From Ignavibacteria bacterium (GTDB taxonomy: Bacteria; Bacteroidota; Ignavibacteria; Kapaibacteriales; UBA961): 64,000 bases of DNA. The notes beneath the pieces were generated by a model. It saw only the letters and a list, made by a program, of their open reading frames with translations, did no database searches and had not been told where the DNA came from. Below, one piece after another: positions 15,257 to 50,168 of the stretch (its first letter is position 1; each line of letters starts with the position of its first letter). The position numbers were made by a program, and so were the translations under genes. The DNA is taken from NCBI GenBank assembly GCA_016720145.1, contig JADJXV010000007.1, forward strand, positions 103,426 to 167,425, written 5' to 3'.

Positions 15257-16008
15257 ATTATTAGACGCTTCTAATTCCTGCCGGACAGATTCGCGGATCT
15301 CGGTTTGTTTGTTTTGATAGTCAAGTTCGCGGTCGGCGATGACAAGCTCTGCGGCGCGCTTGTCTTTCTCTTCATTTTGGAAGGCAAGTTCTTTATTTGC
15401 AACGAGTAATTTAGCTGTGAGCTTCCCTTTTTCTTCATCCTGATACGCGAGCTCGATATTAGCAAGACCCAGCTCAGCGGCGCGCTTGCCTTTCTCTTCA
15501 TTTTGGAAGGCAAGTTCTTTATTAGCTACGACTAACTCAGCAGCACGCTTGCTTTTTTCTTCGTCTTGATACGCAAGCTCAATATTAGCAAGTCCCAGCT
15601 CAGCAGCGCGTTTGCCTTTTTCCTCGTCTTGATAGGCGAGTTCGATATTCGCAAGACCAAGCTCGGCGGCGCGCTTGCCTTTTTCCTCGTCCTGAAAAGC
15701 CAGCTCAATATTTGCGAGCCCAAGTTCAGCAGCTCGTTTGCCTTTTCCTCATCCTGAAACGCGAGTTCGATATTGGCTATACCAAGCTCCGTGGCTCTTT
15801 TTTCTTTTTCTCCATCCTGAAACTCAAGCTCTTTGTTGGCTATTCCGAGTTCGGCAGCACGCTTCCGCCGCTCAATGTTTTGAGTGTCAATTTCCTTGCG
15901 AACGCTAGCCAATTCTGCAATCAGTGTTTGATTTTCAGCTATTTGAATATCAAGTTCACTTTGAAGGCGGACTATATCATCGACAGATGGGTTAGTTTGG
16001 TATGCCAT
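15257..16008 (-). CDS. N-terminal extension of the hybrid kinase: coiled-coil plus about 10 tandem 21-aa repeats (ELGIANIELAYQDEEKGKRAA), separated from the kinase frame by a 1-nt homopolymer indel near 15745
   Basis: The ATG at 16008 opens MAYQTNPSVDDIVRLQSELDIQIAENQTLIAELASVRKEIDTQNIERRKRAAELGIANKELEFQ... Restoring one base in the T4 run at 15744-15747 (T5 in the other repeat copies) puts the reading in the kinase frame. That frame has no stop from about 15745 to 15256 and reads ...EEKGKRAAELGLANIELAYQDEEK...LVANKELAFQNEEKDKRAAELVIADRELDYQNKQTEIRESVRQELEASNNLVQLASQYS..., which continues into the kinase. It also contains no ATG, GTG or TTG before 15256. The DNA has a 63-bp tandem periodicity. 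Confidence 0.6.
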
Positions 16009-19619: not shown

Positions 19620-19756
19620 CTACAAACAGGACGCCCTGATGGGGCTACAAACATGATGCCTAGACAATTGCTACAAACAGGACGCCCCGATGGGGCTACA
19701 AATATGATGCCTAGACAATTGCTACAAACAGGACGCCCCGATGGGGCTACAAAAGC
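19620..19756. repeat. 51-bp tandem repeat x2.7, each unit containing a GC hairpin (gccccgatggggc)
   Basis: The unit ctacaaacaggacgccc[ct]gatggggctacaaa[ct]atgatgcctagacaattg repeats at 19620, 19671 and 19722. Confidence 0.85.
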
Positions 19757-25364: not shown

Positions 25365-25460
25365 GACTTATTTACGACTTACTGCCTGATACTTGTACTT
25401 ACTTCTTAACGACTTACAATCTTTCGACTTACTACTTACTACTTACTACTTATTCCTTAC
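25365..25460. repeat. Second copy of the composite TTTCGAC/(TTACTAC)n microsatellite element, abutting the stop codon of 25457..26050
   Basis: ...ctttcgacttactacttactacttactacttattccttacttcc. Confidence 0.8.
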
Positions 25461-26050
25461 TTCCCCAGTCCGATTTGATTCATATATGCTTGATTGTCCC
25501 AGAAGAGATGTTCCTCTATGATCACACCATTTTTCCACATTGCTACTGTACACATTGGGATGGAGAATAATTTTCCGGTCGATTGGATCATTGTGCCTTT
25601 GCCGGTCGGCATTGGAGAGGAGAAGGTACCGCTCATGATACCTGTGACGCAGGTCATATTGCCCGAGCCGAATCTTACAGGGTGTAGCTGAATATTCGTA
25701 TTGGGCGCATAGACAAACATTTGCTTCAAGTCTGCTATATGTCTGTCAATTCCAACTGTTGAATGTCCGTCCGGCCAATTTACTTTCACATCTTTCGAAT
25801 GACTTTCGTGCAGACGAGCCCAATCTTGATTGCTAAAGACAGTAAAGTCTAATGTATCGAAGGTTGCGAGATTCTTGGCAATCTGTTGGTTGCCGGAAGT
25901 GAGATTGGTGATTTGATTGCGCAGGGAGTCAACTGATGCTTGTGAGTAGGTTTGTACGTCTTTATCATCCGAACAGCTTACAAGTGACATGACGCAACAC
26001 GTAAGAATCACAAGAGATAATAAATTTTTCAGGCGGTCTGTGTTTTTCAT
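25457..26050 (-). CDS. Lipoprotein with SnoaL-like/ester-cyclase fold
   Basis: Signal and lipobox (LVSCSDDK). The C-terminal ...GVIIEEHLFWDNQAYMNQIGL resembles predicted ester cyclases (SnoaL-like). Confidence 0.45.
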   Translation of the reverse strand: MKNTDRLKNLLSLVILTCCVMSLVSCSDDKDVQTYSQASVDSLRNQITNLTSGNQQIAKNLATFDTLDFTVFSNQDWARLHESHSKDVKVNWPDGHSTVGIDRHIADLKQMFVYAPNTNIQLHPVRFGSGNMTCVTGIMSGTFSSPMPTGKGTMIQSTGKLFSIPMCTVAMWKNGVIIEEHLFWDNQAYMNQIGLGK

Positions 26051-32042: not shown

Positions 32043-32762
32043 ATTGGGTACGCAAGTGTGCCTAAATGCAGTAGTGCAGGTGATTATTTAACACAAAGCC
32101 ACAATGGTAAGCCACAAAGTTCACAATAAGATAGGTGTATTTGTAGTGTTCTTTGTGGAATAACTTTGTGCCTTAGTGTTAAAAACTGATTTTCAATACA
32201 GAGAAGTTGAGGCGTTAAGATATCTTTGCTGATTTTGAGTAAAATGCTAAATAACAAGTAGATACATCAATCTTGCAAACGCTTCATCTGAAAGTATTTA
32301 CAATTAGTTGTACTCTAACATACACCTCAATCTGGGAATTGAGTGCAGCCTAAATGCAGTAGTGCAGGTGATTAATTAACACAAAGGCACAATGGTAAGC
32401 CACAAAGTTCACAATAAGATAGGTGTATTAGTAGTGTGCTTTGTGGAATAACTTTGAGTCTTTGTGTTAAAAACTGATTTTCAATACAGAGAAGTTGAGG
32501 CGTTAAGATATCTTTGCTGATTTTGAGTAAAATGCTAAATAACAAGTAGAGACATCAATCTTGCAAACGCTTCATCTGAAAGTATTTACAATTAGTTGTA
32601 CTCTAACATACACCTCAATCTGGGAATTGAGTGCAGCCTATATGCAGTAGTGCAGGTGATTATTTAACACAAAGCCACAAAGGTAAGCCACAAAGTTCAC
32701 AATAAGATAGGTGTATTAGTAGTGTGCTTTGTGGAATAACTTTGAGTCTTTGTGTTAAAAAA
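32043..32762. repeat. 288-bp tandem repeat x2.5, non-coding; each unit contains an imperfect hairpin of about 100 nt (ttaacacaaag...ctttgtgttaa with inner ccacaaag...ctttgtgg) followed by a T-rich tract
   Basis: Unit starts at 32061, 32349 and 32637, with an exact 288-bp period and a few substitutions between copies. No ORF of 60 aa or more on either strand. Confidence 0.9.
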
Positions 32763-34556: not shown

Positions 34557-34908
34557 GGAATCGACAGCATTCTTCCTGAATAGACTCCAGCTTTAGCTGG
34601 AGGATAGAGGAAGAAGAAAATCGACAGCATTCTTCCTGAATAGACTCCAGCTTTAGCCGGAGGATAAAGGAAGAAGGAATCGACAGCATTCTTCCTGAAT
34701 AGACTCCAGCTTTAGCTGGAGGTTAGAGGAAGAAGAAAATCGACAGCATTCTTCCTGAATAGACTCCAGCTTTAGCTGGAGGATAAAGGAAGAAGAAAAT
34801 CGACAGCATTCTTCCTGAATAATAGGATAGAGGAAGAAGAAAATCGACAGCATTCTTCCTGAATAGACTCCAGCTTTAGCTGGAGGGTAGAGGGAAGATG
34901 AAAATCGA
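34557..34908. repeat. Tandem array of six 61-63-bp repeats, each carrying the hairpin ctccagc-ttta-gctggag; located immediately 3' of the 1321-aa T9SS cargo gene
   Basis: The unit aatcgacagcattcttcctgaatagactccagctttagctggagg[ag]tagaggaagaagaaa starts at 34557, 34619, 34680, 34741, 34802 (hairpin deleted) and 34847. Confidence 0.9.
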
Positions 34909-43993: not shown

Positions 43994-44065
43994 GGTTGAA
44001 TTTTATGCTTAGTTTTGTTCGGTAATGAATATCGTAACCTCGAAGCTCATCTCTTTTACTTCTCC

Positions 44066-46030
44066 ATGCAAATCCCCGATCATATCATCGACCAAGTTCG
44101 TCAACGTACCGATATTGTTGAAATTATCGGCGAATCGGTCGCACTGAAAAAGTCAGGTCGCAGTTTCGTCGGACTTTGCCCGTTTCACTCTGACCGTAAG
44201 CCGTCGATGAATGTGAGCCCCGATTTGCAGATATTCAAATGTTTCTCGTGCGGCAAGGGTGGGAATGTGTTCACGTTCATGACCGACTTCCACCGCCTCA
44301 CCTTCCTCGAAGCCCTCAAAGCACTCGCAGCAAAAGCCGGTATTGCTCTCCCGGACGAAGACAAGCCCCATGATGAAAGCTACAATCGGGTAGATTCTGC
44401 CTATAAAGCGCTAGCAGCGGCTTCTCAATTTTACCACGATACTCTCTCCAAATCTTCGGGGAAAATAGCTCTTCAATACTTTACCAAACGAGGCTTTACC
44501 CGAAAATTAATTGATGATTTTGCACTTGGATTCTCGCCTGAGTCGTTCACTGCGACTCTAGCCGAACTCACCAAACGTGGCTTTTCTGAATCAGTCATGA
44601 ACGACGCAGGGCTGATTCTCAAAAAAGAAGAACCAGGCAGCAAACCCTACGACCGTTTTCGCGGACGTGCAATGTTTGCGATTCACGATGTGTCCGGACG
44701 TGTCGTCGGCTTCGGCGCACGGCAAATGAAGGACGACGGTCAGGCAAAGTATATCAATTCACCTCAATCCCTTGTCTATGACAAAAGCAAGATACTGTAT
44801 GCTCTTTTTCAGGCGAAGCAGGAAATACGTTCACTGCAAGTAGCTATATTAGTTGAAGGTTATGCAGACGCACTTACTTTGCATCAGGCAGGTTTCCGTA
44901 ATACAGTCGCCTCGAGCGGTACATCCTTAACGAAAGATCAACTTCAATTACTTGCGCGATATGCCAAGAAAATGTACATTGTCTATGATGCCGATACCGC
45001 CGGAATAAATGCCGCCTCTCGTGGACTTGAGCTCGCCGTCGAGGAAGGATTTGATGTGCATATTGTGCAATTACCGGCAGGCGATGACCCCGACAGCTTT
45101 GTCAAAAAAAATGGCGCTGATTCGTTTCGTATTTATCTCCGCGATGCAAAGCCATTTTTAGACTTTAAAATTGACATCATGAAAGCCAATAATCTGCTCG
45201 AATCTCCAGTAGGTAAGGCAGAAGCAATTCGTAGCTTGGTGCAAATAATCGCCAAAGTACCTGATACTCTTCAACATGATTTTTTAATGGGTCGTGTATC
45301 CGATCGCTTAGACTTGAGCGCCTCACAACTCCGGAGAATCTACGAAGAACTCACCAACGTCCGCCGAGCAAATACTGCCAAATCATCACCAAAAATGGGA
45401 TATACTCAGCAAAACGTACAGCAGAATGTACTGCAAGCTGAATCGCAAAGTACACATCAGACTGAAAACCAGAATGTATTACCGGCTACTTCCTCACCTG
45501 TTTCGAGTGATACAGCACTAGTCACGCTTGCTGAACTTGCAATGAGCGAGAATCTCTTACCCGAGGAAAAATCTGTCCTTCGGATAGCGCTCACCGTGTC
45601 AAATGCTTTGCGATACATGGTCGAGCAGCTCAAAATTGAAGAAACACTATTTTACACCGAACCTGCTCGCCGTATCTATTCACTTGCTATAGATGCACTT
45701 AACCGAGGTTCACAGAATATATTTTCCTCCCTTGTCGCCAATGCTTCCATCAGTGAAGAGATGATGCATATCATCACGGACATAGCCATGCAACGTGAAA
45801 TGCCAAGCGAAAAGTGGTTAGATTTTAAGATTGCTGTTCCAGAGGAAAATGCCCGCCGCGTCCTTACCGACTCGCTGATGAAGATGCAAATCAAGTCAAT
45901 TGACCGCGAAAAGCAAGTAATACAATCGCAAATGAAGTCGGTATCTCAAGAGGAATCACTGCCACTCCTTCAACGATTGATACAAATTACTTCGCAGCGA
46001 AAAGAAATTTTAGAGAAAATGGGTGGTTAA
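44066..46030 (+). CDS. dnaG: DNA primase DnaG
   Basis: CHC2 zinc finger (GLCPFHSDRKPSMNVSPDLQIFKCFSCGKGGNVFTFM), RNA polymerase domain, and TOPRIM (LVEGYADALTLHQAGFRNTVASSGTSLT...MYIVYDADTAGINAA). Start at the ATG at 44066. The ORF-track TTG start at 44015 is less likely. Confidence 0.9.
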   Translation: MQIPDHIIDQVRQRTDIVEIIGESVALKKSGRSFVGLCPFHSDRKPSMNVSPDLQIFKCFSCGKGGNVFTFMTDFHRLTFLEALKALAAKAGIALPDEDKPHDESYNRVDSAYKALAAASQFYHDTLSKSSGKIALQYFTKRGFTRKLIDDFALGFSPESFTATLAELTKRGFSESVMNDAGLILKKEEPGSKPYDRFRGRAMFAIHDVSGRVVGFGARQMKDDGQAKYINSPQSLVYDKSKILYALFQAKQEIRSLQVAILVEGYADALTLHQAGFRNTVASSGTSLTKDQLQLLARYAKKMYIVYDADTAGINAASRGLELAVEEGFDVHIVQLPAGDDPDSFVKKNGADSFRIYLRDAKPFLDFKIDIMKANNLLESPVGKAEAIRSLVQIIAKVPDTLQHDFLMGRVSDRLDLSASQLRRIYEELTNVRRANTAKSSPKMGYTQQNVQQNVLQAESQSTHQTENQNVLPATSSPVSSDTALVTLAELAMSENLLPEEKSVLRIALTVSNALRYMVEQLKIEETLFYTEPARRIYSLAIDALNRGSQNIFSSLVANASISEEMMHIITDIAMQREMPSEKWLDFKIAVPEENARRVLTDSLMKMQIKSIDREKQVIQSQMKSVSQEESLPLLQRLIQITSQRKEILEKMGG

Positions 46031-46265
46031 ATGATTGGTGGTTCTGTTGCTTGCATTCCAAGCAATCGCTTGCGGGCACCCTTGCCGTCCAAGCAATCTG
46101 AAAAATGGCACGATGATACCGCTGATTTATTATGAGGAAAGATACTCTAAATCGTTAACTAGTAGCATTGACATGGTGTTCGCATCAAACTATAAGTGGA
46201 TTACTAGCTCTATAGGAGTGACCGGTTTGTAACAACGAAGTTCAATAGTATGCCCTTCGTGCCGT

Positions 46266-46332
46266 AGGTGTGACCTGTTTTTTTCCTACTATATTGCGCA
46301 ATAAACAGGTCGCACCTACGGCGCTACAATGG
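46266..46332. repeat. Hairpin with 20-bp arms (gccgtaggtgtgacctgttt / aaacaggtcgcacctacggc). One arm recurs as the last 5'-exon nucleotides abutting the group II intron at 48335-48365
   Basis: The hairpin is an inverted repeat. Its right arm matches 48344-48365 (aaacaggtcgcccctacagggc) as a direct repeat. Confidence 0.7.
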
Positions 46333-46399
46333 TTCTTGTGGGTATATTTGGTCGAGTAGAGAGCTAACCCACAGTCTTTAGATTCCACCGTAGTTCCGT

Positions 46400-48334
46400 G
46401 TCCGCATTTCTGCTTTTGTGCCTTAGGATGTGTATTTCTTGGATGTGCATTGCTCCCCCTCACAGAACCGTGCATGAGGATTTCCCTCACACGGCTCCTC
46501 AATTGTATTCCGCACTCAGTGCTTGTAAAAGCTTACGTATATCTTTGGTTCCGGAAGTGGATACTTCGATACATACTGCTTAAAACTCTCCCAAGTGTAG
46601 CTCTTCTTCTGACTACGACGGTTGAGCCACTTGTAGAGAAGTTTCTTTACTCGGTCTTTGTAATTCCATAATGATTTGCTGTTTTCACTTACACCATAAT
46701 AGTGATAGTGACCACGTACCATTTGGGATATACTTTCCCAAAGTTCTTGCAGCGTATAGGTATTCTTGTGTTCCTTCAGGAAGATGCTCACCTTACGGAT
46801 GCCAAGGCGGAAGCGGGACTTACTTGTCCGCCTACATACCTTGAATTTGCCTGCTCGGGTTTTACCGCAGTAATGGGTAAACCCAAGAAAGTCAAACGTG
46901 CCCGGATGTTTGTTCTCGTCGCTTGTGTCCGTATTACGACCAAATTTTACTACCGATGTCTTGGTTTCCGATAATTCAAGCTTGAACTTCGCAAGCCGTA
47001 ATCGCAAAGCTTCCAATATCAATGTGCAGTCCGATTCTCGTTCTACAAGTATGATAAAGTCGTTCTGCATACCGTACTATCGATGCATAGCCTTGAAGCT
47101 CTTTCTTCAATCCTTTCTCGAACCAAATGTCAAGCACATAATGAAGGTATATGTTTGCTAAGATTGGGCTAATGATGCCGCCTTGGGGCGTTCCCTTGTC
47201 GCTCGCTCTAAAGCTACCTTCATCCATGATTCCTGCTTTCAGAAATCTGATAATCAGTCGAATAAATTTCTTGTCTTTTATCCGATGTTCCAGAAACTGT
47301 ACTAACCAATCATGGTTAACATTGTCGAAAAACGATTTAATATCTGCATCGATAATATAGTTTACGCGCTTGAGGGTTATCTCTTGAAGTACCTGCTTCA
47401 ACGCATCGTGACAACCCATCTTTTCTCTAAAGCCATAGGATGAATCAATAAAACTTGGGTCGAATACTGCCGTTAGTATCGAGGATATTCCTTTCCTGGA
47501 CTATCTTGTCCTCTGTCGAGGGAATGCCCAATGCGCGTTCCTCCTCGTTCTTTCGGTATTTCCTTCTTACGCACGGCTTGCGGACGATACGACATGCTTT
47601 TCATCCGTTCTACCAATCCACTAAGATTCGCTTCAAGCGATTCTCCGTATTCTTCTACACTCACTCCGTCTATGCCAAGTGCCTTCTTACGGGGAAGTTC
47701 GGCATAGCACGTTCTAAAGTACTCCTCGTTCAGCAAGCTTGCCAATGAGCCAAACTTGTATTTGGGAGAGTCCTTCGAGACCTTGCTTAGTTGTATAAGT
47801 TTCGTTGCCGTATCTGATTGTGTTCTATGAGCCATATACGTTTCCTTTATACAATACATACAATTGTCAGCCCCTTCGCGCTACACCAGAATTGAATGCT
47901 TCTGCATGCATACCTCTGCTTTCGCAGAGCTTGACGCTACTATGGGCTAATCCGACTTCCATTATACCGTTACGCATTCTACCCTTTTCGGATTTGGTTG
48001 CGCTTATGCCAAATGGCAAGTATAGTGGATATCCCAAGTTCCTGATATATCCGTTTGATATCATACTGCGGACTTAGACCCCGATGATGACTACATGCTC
48101 AAGCCATACGAACATGTTGTTATTGCATTCCTGTTTGTAGAGACAGTCTGCCATCATAACCTGACCTATTTCGGGGCTCAATACCTTCACTTGCGTTGCG
48201 GTCTGATATCTCCCTCGTCGTAGCTTCACTGGGCTTGTTACCTCACACAGCGTACGATTGCGGTAGCGGGTGGGTGGCTCCCTTCCCGCGAAGGATTTGC
48301 ACCTTCTGAATATACCAAGCTTCGCTTGGCGCAC
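46400..48334 (-). mobile_element. Bacterial group II intron (about 1.9 kb) with a frameshifted intron-encoded reverse transcriptase/maturase; 3' boundary approximate
   Basis: The minus strand begins GTGCGCC at 48334. The reverse-transcriptase/maturase ORF is split into three pieces on the minus strand: 47859..47473 (RT0/1: ...LNEEYFRTCYAELPRKKALGIDGVSVEEYGESLEANLSGLVERMKSMSYRPQAVRKKEIPKERGGTR), 47419..46976 (RT2-5: GCHDALKQV...IDADIKSFFDNVNH...GTPQGGIISPILANIYL...YA) and 47070..46516 (DDFIILVE...maturase X: FLGFTHY...RGHYHYYGV). Domain V (GAGCCGTGTGAGGGAAATCCTCATGCACGGTTC) lies on the minus strand at about 46461-46493. Confidence 0.8.
46516..47859 (-). pseudogene. Group II intron reverse transcriptase/maturase (intron-encoded protein) disrupted by at least two frameshifts (near 47529 and near 47060)
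   Basis: Three consecutive ORFs in different frames together cover RT domains 0-7 and the X domain. The YADD motif is split between ORFs (…SIVRYA | DDFIILVE…). Confidence 0.7.
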
Positions 48335-48403
48335 CTACAAACAGGTCGCCCCTACAGGGCTATGGATGCTGAATCTCGTTGTGGAATTTTGTTGCGGTAA
48401 CCC

Positions 48404-48440
48404 ACAAAAAAAGCGGGAAATTCAATTGAGAATTTCCCGC
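48404..48440 (-). terminator. Rho-independent terminator of mdh
   Basis: gcgggaaatt-caattgag-aatttcccgc is followed on the minus strand by a T7 run. Confidence 0.75.
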
Positions 48441-48463
48441 TTATCATTTTATCTACTAATGAC

Positions 48464-49438
<975 letters not shown>

Positions 49439-49506: not shown

Positions 49507-49926
49507 CTAACGCCAACCAGCTATATTCAGATACTCTTTCGCAGTCATAACGGGAAGAGACGAATTTTTAAAATCTTTTTTATTCCTTGTAATAATTCCT
49601 TCTAAGCCAATTTCAAGTGCAGTATTATATTGAATTGCATCTTCAAAATCTTTGAAATCCGAGACTAAAGCAAGCTCTATTATTTTATTATCCAATGAAG
49701 CAACTTCTACCAACACTTTGAATTTTATAAGAATTTTTCTTGCTTCATCTAGCTTATGTTGTTTTGCTAGTAAATAATGAGCGTTCGCTAATGTAAGGGA
49801 CGAAACAAAAAGCTCGACTTGTTTGGCATCCGCAAGCGAGAACAATTCTTGAGCTTCCTCAAAAAAATCTTCACGGCGGGCAAGCAAATCAACTACAATA
49901 TTCGTATCAACTAAGAGCTTTTTCAT
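49507..49926 (-). CDS. vapC: PIN-domain protein (VapC-like type II toxin)
   Basis: MKKLLVDTNIVVDLL... carries an N-terminal acidic D, a conserved E and later D residues. It sits immediately downstream of a small gene with 1-nt overlap. Confidence 0.65.
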   Translation of the reverse strand: MKKLLVDTNIVVDLLARREDFFEEAQELFSLADAKQVELFVSSLTLANAHYLLAKQHKLDEARKILIKFKVLVEVASLDNKIIELALVSDFKDFEDAIQYNTALEIGLEGIITRNKKDFKNSSLPVMTAKEYLNIAGWR

Positions 49927-50168
49927 TACGAGTATTTCTCAGTAAGATAATCGTGGTATTCGTTTTTATCATCCAACTGTTCACTAGCAATTACACCTGT
50001 TAAACTCTGTACCAAAGGGCTGATTTTAATTTTTTTCTTCGGATTTGACGTGAGGGAAATGAGATAGCTTTCGATAAGTTTTGAAAGACTTACACGATTA
50101 TCTTTGGCAAAGTCTTTTGCTTGAACAAGGATATCTTTGTCAAGTTGCAATGTAAGATTTGTTTTCAT
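49926..50168 (-). CDS. Putative antitoxin (small DNA-binding protein) partner of the PIN-domain gene
   Basis: 80-aa protein MKTNLTLQLDKDILVQAKDFAKDNRVSLSKLIESYL... Its gene context matches a VapB-type antitoxin. Confidence 0.5.
   Translation of the reverse strand: MKTNLTLQLDKDILVQAKDFAKDNRVSLSKLIESYLISLTSNPKKKIKISPLVQSLTGVIASEQLDDKNEYHDYLTEKYS

Follow-up and report, generated by a model that had tools for sequence, protein, structure and literature searches.

A group II intron in the mdh-dnaG spacer

The sequence studied here is a stretch of 64,000 nt from an Ignavibacteria bacterium (assembly GCA_016720145.1, contig JADJXV010000007.1, positions 103,426 to 167,425), referred to below as the window. 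On its minus strand, in the spacer between mdh, the gene for malate dehydrogenase, and the primase gene dnaG, lies a group II intron with a broken gene for its reverse transcriptase (RT), inserted at a unit of a short repeat family. The repeat resembles repetitive extragenic palindromic (REP) sequences. The intron and its parts were located as follows.

46351..48334, minus strand: group II intron, IIB-like of class E/F type, 1,984 nt, from Rfam and the ends of the relatives' homology
48069..48299, minus strand: domain I core, from the RF02005 alignment
48279-48275, minus strand: alpha, AGCCA, pairing with alpha' UGGCU
48106-48102, minus strand: alpha', UGGCU, in the terminal loop of a hairpin in subdomain Id3 (RF02005 structure)
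46465..46497, minus strand: domain V with the AGC triad (GAGCCGU...) and a 5-nt GAAAU loop, from the RF00029 alignment and the RNA fold
46351..46462, minus strand: domain VI with an insert of ~75 nt, candidate branch-point A at 46357 (-7), ending in ...CUACUCGAC
46516..47859, minus strand: pseudogene of the RT/maturase, the intron-encoded protein (IEP), with a likely start codon at 47835-47833, or upstream at 47859

An earlier note, made from the letters of the sequence, had placed a group II intron behind the mdh terminator and proposed a covariance-model search. This search was run, and two Rfam models matched on the minus strand: RF02005 (group-II-D1D4-6) at 48299..48069 with 114.7 bits (E=9e-32), and RF00029 (domains V-VI) at 46499..46351 with 56 bits. 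There was no further Rfam intron match in the window. Two intact relatives were found via the protein database, with products P0121 (contig L045) and P0122 (contig L046) at 93% and 85% identity, respectively. In the alignment with these and two more intact copies, L051 and L053, homology sets in exactly at 48334 and ends exactly at 46351, at ...CTCTACTCGAC (CUCGAC), and the length of the intron is therefore 1,984 nt. The exon flanks of the window intron and of L045 and L046 are unrelated. At the 5' junction, 48335/48334, the exon ends in ...CCTGTTTGTAG and the intron begins with GTGCGCCAAGCG..., opening with GTGCGCC at 48334 as the earlier note had read it. Hallmarks of group II introns are present, i.e., the GUGCG 5' end, the AGC triad of domain V, and a bulged A near the 3' end in domain VI. 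The domain V of the earlier note was also found, but its position, given as 46461-46493, was shifted by 4 nt from the actual 46497..46465. The 3' end CUACUCGAC is common to distant relatives. The element is thus confirmed as a real group II intron.

By the loop of domain V, the position of alpha', the presence of two exon-binding sites (EBS1 and EBS2), and the lack of an endonuclease domain, the intron is IIB-like and of class E/F type. Introns of classes IIE and IIF are characterized by a 5-nt domain V loop, alpha' in a terminal loop, and a ribozyme of 450-700 nt in an otherwise IIB-like layout (Nagy et al., 2013, PMC3753933). In the window, domain V folded as GAGG-GAAAU-CCUC in both the minimum-free-energy and the centroid structure, with GAAAA in the loop of relative L002, and the alpha-alpha' pairing showed a compensatory change from G-C to A-U in L002-L004. 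Without its open reading frame (ORF) the ribozyme measures ~660 nt, ~500 nt of it 5' and ~165 nt 3' of the ORF. All relatives tested matched RF02005. The ~75-nt insert in domain VI, placed between the two basal strands, is conserved in L045, L046, L051, and L053, and in distant relatives of the same Rfam type it is shorter, ~30 nt. Assignment of the class from matches to solved structures was rejected, since the best match, to the GsI-IIC RT (1.8e-46), was too similar to the others: IIC, IIA (LtrA), and retron-type RTs all gave E-values of ~1e-42 to 1e-46.

The earlier note had the RT/maturase ORF split by at least two frameshifts, and three were found. Fragments at 47473-47859, 46976-47419, and 46516-47070 carry RVT_1 and GIIM domains, and should be annotated as one pseudogene. 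Set against the four intact relatives, the gene lacks 2 nt near 47532-47537 and has gained a G at 47495/6 and an A at 47063/4, the latter within the YADD motif; in addition, domain III has lost 1 nt at ~47982/3. These indels are confined to the window copy, which would no longer be able to make its own maturase and RT and is probably inactive at present. Substitutions unique to the window copy are biased towards third codon positions (11, 6, and 22 at positions 1, 2, and 3, respectively), and the inactivation was therefore recent. The intact relative P0121 reached 359.7 bits on TIGR04416 (cut-off 300). No endonuclease (HNH) domain was found in the window fragments or in P0121, where RVT_1 and GIIM (RT and X) were the only domains.

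Exon pairing and the repeat at the insertion site

Among close copies of the intron, 88-92% identical to the window copy and 88-98% identical among themselves, two blocks in domain I are the sole hypervariable ones. One sits in the large 5' bulge of subdomain Id and corresponds to EBS2; the other is in the terminal loop of Id3 and corresponds to EBS1. Their partners in the exon are the intron-binding sites IBS2 and IBS1.

48169-48163, minus strand: EBS2, AUAGGUC, pairing 7/7 with IBS2
48140-48135, minus strand: EBS1, CUACAA, pairing 6/6 with IBS1
48347-48341, minus strand: IBS2, GACCTGT (GACCUGU as RNA), exon positions -13 to -7
48340-48335, minus strand: IBS1, TTGTAG (UUGUAG as RNA), exon positions -6 to -1

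The pairing was evaluated in 14 related introns against a null in which exons were shuffled among them. With their own exons, IBS1-EBS1 made 75 of 84 possible pairs, compared with a mean of 43.5 after shuffling, and none of 20,000 shuffles reached this value. For IBS2-EBS2 the count was 51 of 98 against a mean of 37.7 (p ~7e-4). Recognition of the target is thus of the classical IIB type. No other of the 14 introns pairs as well as the window copy, at 13 of 13 positions, and because the match is perfect over 13 nt we argue that the site is a cognate homing site. As a candidate for EBS3, the column ACCG[C/U]A was considered; it makes U-A pairs in L046, L051, and L053 but fails in distant relatives, and the assignment was dropped.

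The 13 exon nucleotides that pair make up the conserved 3' portion of a repeat unit, which a search with the family profile found seven times in the window, at two intergenic loci.

48335..48363, minus strand: REP-like unit 1, last 29 nt of the 5' exon, ATAGCCCTGTAGGGGCGACCTGTTTGTAG, nhmmer profile match
46300..46328, minus strand: REP-like unit 2, left arm of the hairpin, unoccupied, IBS2 7/7 and IBS1 4/6
46259..46282, plus strand: REP-like unit 3, inverted, right arm of the hairpin, profile match and inverted repeat
46205..46231, plus strand: REP-like unit 4, degenerate inverted copy, TAGCTCTATAGGAGTGACCGGTTTGTAAC, weak by nhmmer (E 0.93) and assigned mainly from position and orientation
19620..19753, minus strand: intron-free tandem array with a 51-nt period, three units, GTAGCCCCATCGGGGCGTCCTGTTTGTAG, each with IBS1 6/6 and IBS2 6/7

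The four units of the mdh-dnaG spacer are arranged as two direct followed by two inverted ones, and the array lies between genes for an outer-membrane beta-barrel protein and a DUF1003 protein. Common to the units are a GTAG tag, a small stem of the GCCCC/GGGGC type, and a tail G(A/T)CCTGTTT. A 20-mer version of the motif had five matches in the window, with 0.03 expected by chance. Its 11 single matches in viral contigs were in unrelated, non-repeat contexts and were uninformative. Unit 1 returns as a direct repeat (48339-48362 versus 46303-46326, 88% match), while units 2 and 3 form an inverted repeat with arms of 23 nt (46261-46283 and 46300-46322, 91% complementary). The earlier note was right in that the motif recurs in direct and inverted copies near the 3' end of the intron. 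It does not occupy the final 22 nt of the exon, however; GTAG (48338-48335) stands between the motif and the intron, and the positions it was given were off by 5. The hairpin is indeed beyond the 3' end, at 29-90 nt rather than 90-150 nt. Directly after the array, up to 19887, there are heptamer microsatellites of the CTTTCGA and ACTTACT types with ~9-12 copies each, and a similar TACTTAC run is found at 25396-25461.

When metagenomes were scanned with the 27 nt at the 5' end of the intron, nine further copies came up, including the full-length L051 and L053. Together with L045, L046, and the window copy, and with L050 and L053 counted as one, this makes 11 independent insertion sites. Six of the 11 are in a REP that reads ...TTGACGGTCGGTT-GTAGC-AACCGACCG..., at the equivalent ...TTGTAG(C) position. 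Four of these (L045, L047, L049, and L050 = L053) directly follow ...ACGTTTCAnnGGTAnGTGTTGACGGTCGGTTGTAGC, and two (L052 and L055) follow ...GTCCGGTCGGTTGTTTC, a variant or the form on the opposite strand. The 3' exon of L053 goes on with AACTGACCGGACG, the second arm of the palindrome. Where the closest relatives home into REP-type palindromes, the site is at, or within 1 nt of, the junction between the loop and the 3' arm. A second target family is common to L048 and L051, and more loosely to L046, leaving L054 and the window as the remaining two sites. The target of the relatives has a 10-bp stem with TAG in the loop. When exons were ligated in silico, those of L051 formed a strong hairpin (-19 kcal/mol, z = -5.9) with the insertion site inside a 4-nt loop, and those of L053 also folded into a hairpin with the site at the loop; no hairpin was formed by L046. 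A palindrome is thus frequent but not obligatory, and base pairing is the constant.

Unoccupied copies of the relatives' REP are numerous on the contigs concerned, and the 3.1-kb contig L047 has at least seven. Positions 2357-2794 of L047 match Y1_Tnp (4.9e-9), as in REP-associated tyrosine transposases (RAYTs), and the gene is flanked by REPs. The RAYT-like gene (2357-2900) appears to be frameshifted near its 3' end, with the conserved ...YMHDNPVKRALV... in another frame. That the lineage prefers palindromes of the REP type, its EBS following the variants of the repeat, has good support in the case of the sister copies; where the window copy is concerned, the support is one insertion. The supposition of the earlier note that the flanking motif bears on targeting was therefore a good one: the copy in the 5' exon carries both IBS2 and IBS1, and the relatives sit in palindromic repeats.

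Origin of the insertion and comparison with known introns

Taken together, we find it probable, with some confidence, that the element is a recently inactivated mobile intron of the IIB-like E/F type which was reverse-spliced into a REP-like unit, and whose relatives home into REP palindromes. An intron ribonucleoprotein lacking an endonuclease would have reverse-spliced into the mdh-sense strand of the spacer, presumably by retrohoming, directly behind (3' of) the GTAG in a short REP-like unit bearing this tag. The site would be specified by 13 contiguous base pairs, AUAGGUC of EBS2 with GACCUGU of IBS2 and CUACAA of EBS1 with UUGUAG of IBS1. Priming of cDNA synthesis at the replication fork is established for other introns without endonuclease; it may be expected here as well, and presumably took place. 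The "20-bp hairpin" of the earlier note is an inverted pair of neighbouring units from the same host repeat family, and such repeats may act as neutral safe-haven sites. EBS1 and EBS2 of the relatives would have diverged to follow different repeat variants, with the window copy tuned to the ...G(A/T)CCTGTTTGTAG family. The copy would then have decayed by the three frameshifting indels in the protein gene and the 1-nt deletion in domain III.

Several observations weigh against this explanation. Firstly, no other intron copy with the EBS set or the exon of the window was found in the genome-contig and metagenome scans, and REP homing of this particular variant therefore rests on one insertion; the genome-contig scan with the reconstructed protein gave relatives of at most 57% identity, the source genome not being among them. 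Secondly, the ligated exons of the window form no significant hairpin (z = +0.45), just a mini-stem TTTG-TAG/CAAA (slash at the insertion site), so that the label REP-like depends on the GTAG tag, the copy number, and the arrangement of the units. No RAYT gene was found in the 64-kb window, the repeat family is seen within it as seven units at two loci only, and three near-perfect targets, those of the array, are unoccupied. Furthermore, the first base of the 3' exon, C, opposes a C at the EBS3 candidate position and makes no pair. The exact empty site was not recovered among intron-free relatives of the locus (L035-L044), whose spacer carries another REP inverted pair (REPIN).

Some of these observations would fit a chance neighbourhood, i.e., a single ectopic landing in a repeat-rich spacer, with the unit not being a habitual homing site. 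This EBS set is known from a single copy, none of the targets in the array is occupied, relatives, too, have a repeat hotspot in the spacer behind mdh, and the sites of L046 and L054 are not obviously palindromic. We nevertheless regard this as unlikely. Pairing at 13 of 13 positions, the best among 14 introns, is typical of a cognate rather than an ectopic site, the paired nucleotides coincide with the conserved 3' part of the unit, and at least six of 11 independent insertions are in REPs at the equivalent ...TTGTAG(C) position.

The frameshifts could also be errors of sequencing or assembly in an intron which is intact and active. Two of the indels are duplications of a single base (G to GG and A to AA), which is a common type of error. 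However, four indels within 2 kb contrast with other ORFs of the same window, which are uninterrupted over 1179, 1879, 900, 1321, 1112, 1674, and 1690 aa, and assembly noise is therefore unlikely. In addition, one indel is a 2-nt deletion and one falls in the catalytic YADD motif. Such errors are a rather improbable explanation.

Group II retrohoming does not duplicate its target site. This speaks against the repeated motif being a by-product of intron activity, either of a tandem double insertion or of a second copy that was later deleted, as the earlier note had suggested. The unit does stand in direct orientation on both sides of the intron, abutting its 5' end and again 23 nt past its 3' end, as such a history would leave it. 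Unit 2 ends in ATTG, though, where EBS1 requires GTAG, and no intron-derived sequence was found between or beyond the units. A second intron remnant was searched for with blastn-short and rejected, as this gave chance matches of 13-16 nt only in the rest of the window, and Rfam gave none. The unit occurs three times in an unrelated intergenic array free of introns. Since the array is intron-free and there are no intron fragments elsewhere, the repeats are a host family and not scars of a second intron, and the family predates the intron. The suggestion of an ancestral tandem site was not upheld, and the probability we would give it is very small.

Least probable of all, and next to negligible, is an IIC or IIC-attC-like intron recognizing a DNA stem-loop, terminator or repeat hairpin, upstream of a short IBS1, the analogy drawn in the earlier note: the intergenic position downstream of an intrinsic terminator, a protein without endonuclease domain, the GsI-IIC RT as best solved-structure match (1.8e-46), a 4-bp mini-hairpin GCCC-tgtag-GGGC 13 nt upstream of the site, and the location of relatives in palindromes would agree with it, but an EBS2 is present (5-7 nt, paired 7/7 in the window), EBS1 has 6 nt and not 3-4, with the match to the own exon seen across 14 introns, the ribozyme is ~660 nt and not ~400, the 5-nt domain V loop and alpha' in a terminal loop are E/F traits, the terminator stem stops 76 nt short of the 5' splice site, the relatives' introns are inside the palindrome at its loop and not after it, and the solved-structure E-values, similar for IIC, IIA (LtrA), and retron-type RTs, hold no class signal.

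Beyond the reading of the window element as a decayed mobile intron in a REP-like unit, we can propose a wider one, for which we see the chances as about even. It would have a sub-lineage of IIB-like E/F-type introns without endonuclease domain specialized on RAYT-associated REP/REPIN palindromes and their derivatives, inserting at the junction of loop and 3' arm with EBS2 and EBS1 paired to the 5' arm and the GTAG loop. The EBS would be re-tuned to REP families and to either strand, and the window copy would be one such re-tuned variant.

The nearest known systems are the class E/F introns Cl.be.I2, Pe.th.I2, and Ge.ur.I1 (PMC3753933, PMC3552965), which share with the window intron the 5-nt domain V loop, alpha' at the tip of the Id3 stem-loop, covarying EBS1 and EBS2, a ribozyme of 450-700 nt, and an RT/maturase without endonuclease domain. 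Ge.ur.I1 likewise has reiterated IBS1 motifs in its 5' exon. The window lineage differs by the lineage-specific ~75-nt insert in domain VI, and classes E and F (or Toro's g1-g4) are left joined here. Homing into REP palindromes is not stated for class E/F introns in PMC3753933, PMC3552965, or the other literature consulted for comparison. IIC and IIC-attC introns (Toor et al., 2006, PMC1702495; Robart et al., 2007) are similar in the lack of an endonuclease domain, the intergenic position after terminators, and the use of stem-loops as neutral landing sites. However, they have no EBS2 and a 3-4-bp EBS1, and insert after the stem-loop, whereas the window lineage pairs 13 nt with the 5' arm and loop and inserts at the loop/3'-arm junction. 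In the intron family of Thermosynechococcus elongatus (Mohr et al., 2010, PMC2882425), close copies also differ mainly in their EBS, that is, in diverged target specificity, and insertion into repeated or mobile DNA is likewise preferred; these are CL-type IIB introns with endonuclease-containing proteins, and their targets are introns and insertion sequences (IS), not REPs. RmInt1 of class D, with ISRm2011-2 as target, resembles the window lineage in having no endonuclease domain and a homing site in a multicopy mobile element, while its protein is of another class and its target is an IS transposase gene instead of a short palindrome.

REP palindromes as abundant intergenic targets are known from the IS elements ISPpu9, ISPpu10, IS1397, and ISPa11 (Tobes and Pareja, 2006, PMC1525189). 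Those are DNA transposons which recognize REPs via a protein, whereas here a retroelement would read the REP by RNA-DNA pairing. A group II intron of P. putida KT2440 is listed as REP-associated at two of its nine copies (PMC1525189). In a full-text search of the literature we found no paper that links group II introns to RAYTs or REPINs.

The element itself is an ordinary decayed retroelement of a known sort, and the mildly novel aspect is the REP homing of its lineage alone. If the specialization is true, a retroelement would be parasitizing another repeat system, and in function it would have converged on what IIC introns do at terminators and IIC-attC introns do at attC sites, via sequence pairing and not structure recognition. 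IIB-like introns are thought to choose their sites purely by sequence. For IIB introns, upstream secondary structure has not been reported to play a part (PMC7923331). A lineage found repeatedly at a fixed structural position in REP palindromes, with EBS that track the variants, is natural material for two questions: whether hairpin-forming repeats on single-stranded DNA aid the integration of endonuclease-less introns, and how introns come to change their targets. For both, the apparently intact relatives L051 and L053 are candidate experimental material.

Neighbouring genes and other repeats

The spacer with the intron is bounded by two convergent genes, of which the upstream one, mdh, has the orientation of the intron.

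48464..49396, minus strand: mdh (malate dehydrogenase), upstream, 310-aa ORF
48411..48442, minus strand: intrinsic terminator of mdh, 13-bp stem, 6-nt loop, then a T-run
44015..46030, plus strand: dnaG primase, convergent downstream gene bounding the spacer, ORF; orthologues in L035 and L039 with DnaG Pfam domains

The mdh product of the window shares 99% identity with P0001 (annotation malate dehydrogenase; domains Ldh_1_N and Ldh_1_C), while an exact look-up of the protein gave no record. Among the named mdh matches the nearest were Kapabacteria, and the host is therefore Kapabacteria-like. The 2.4 kb of the spacer are accounted for by the dead retroelement and host repeats. Intron-free contigs with 97-99% identical mdh (L035-L044) have an mdh-dnaG spacer of just 316-585 nt, in which the terminator is kept; its conservation was seen in L035, L039, and L036. 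Their spacer holds a different REPIN, GTAGGGGCGAATCGCATTCGCCC...GGGCGAATGCGATTCGCCCCTAC, and no intron. These spacers were considered as the sequence before insertion and rejected on account of the different inverted pair. Repeats are thus concentrated in the spacer behind mdh, in the relatives as well.

A classical GTAG-tagged REP, GTAGGGGCGAAT(T/C)GCATTCGCCC, occurs twice on the minus strand of the window, at ~600-640 (near 613) and ~1470-1500 (near 1480). The same REP forms an inverted pair (REPIN) at L035 7041-7113 and L039 7040-7112, exactly at the place taken in the window by the intron. The first 10 nt of this REP, GTAGGGGCGA, are found in unit 1 of the intron's 5' exon too. Unit 3 has an internal stem (46257-46282, plus strand) followed by a T-run; it scores as terminator-like on the dnaG strand and may be the dnaG terminator.

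Between rho and mdh, the minus strand carries at 49507-50168 a gene for a PIN-domain protein (PIN_3, 1.4e-19) and one for a DUF6364 protein (4.6e-24), with a one-base overlap, in a toxin-antitoxin-like arrangement. At this position L035 has the DUF6364 gene alone, and L039 has neither gene.

Other repeats in the window include a tandem repeat of 60/119 nt with a hairpin, CTCCAGCTTTAGCTGGAG, at 34557-34908. It is shared at 93-94% with L051 909-938 and L053 5258-5291, which suggests that the hosts of these two are related to the host of the window and that several repeat families are shared. A 288-nt tandem repeat (2.4 copies, 97% matches) is located at 32060-32761, and a 63/126-nt tandem repeat with ~7.7 copies at 15343-15831 may adjoin or fall inside a coding sequence.

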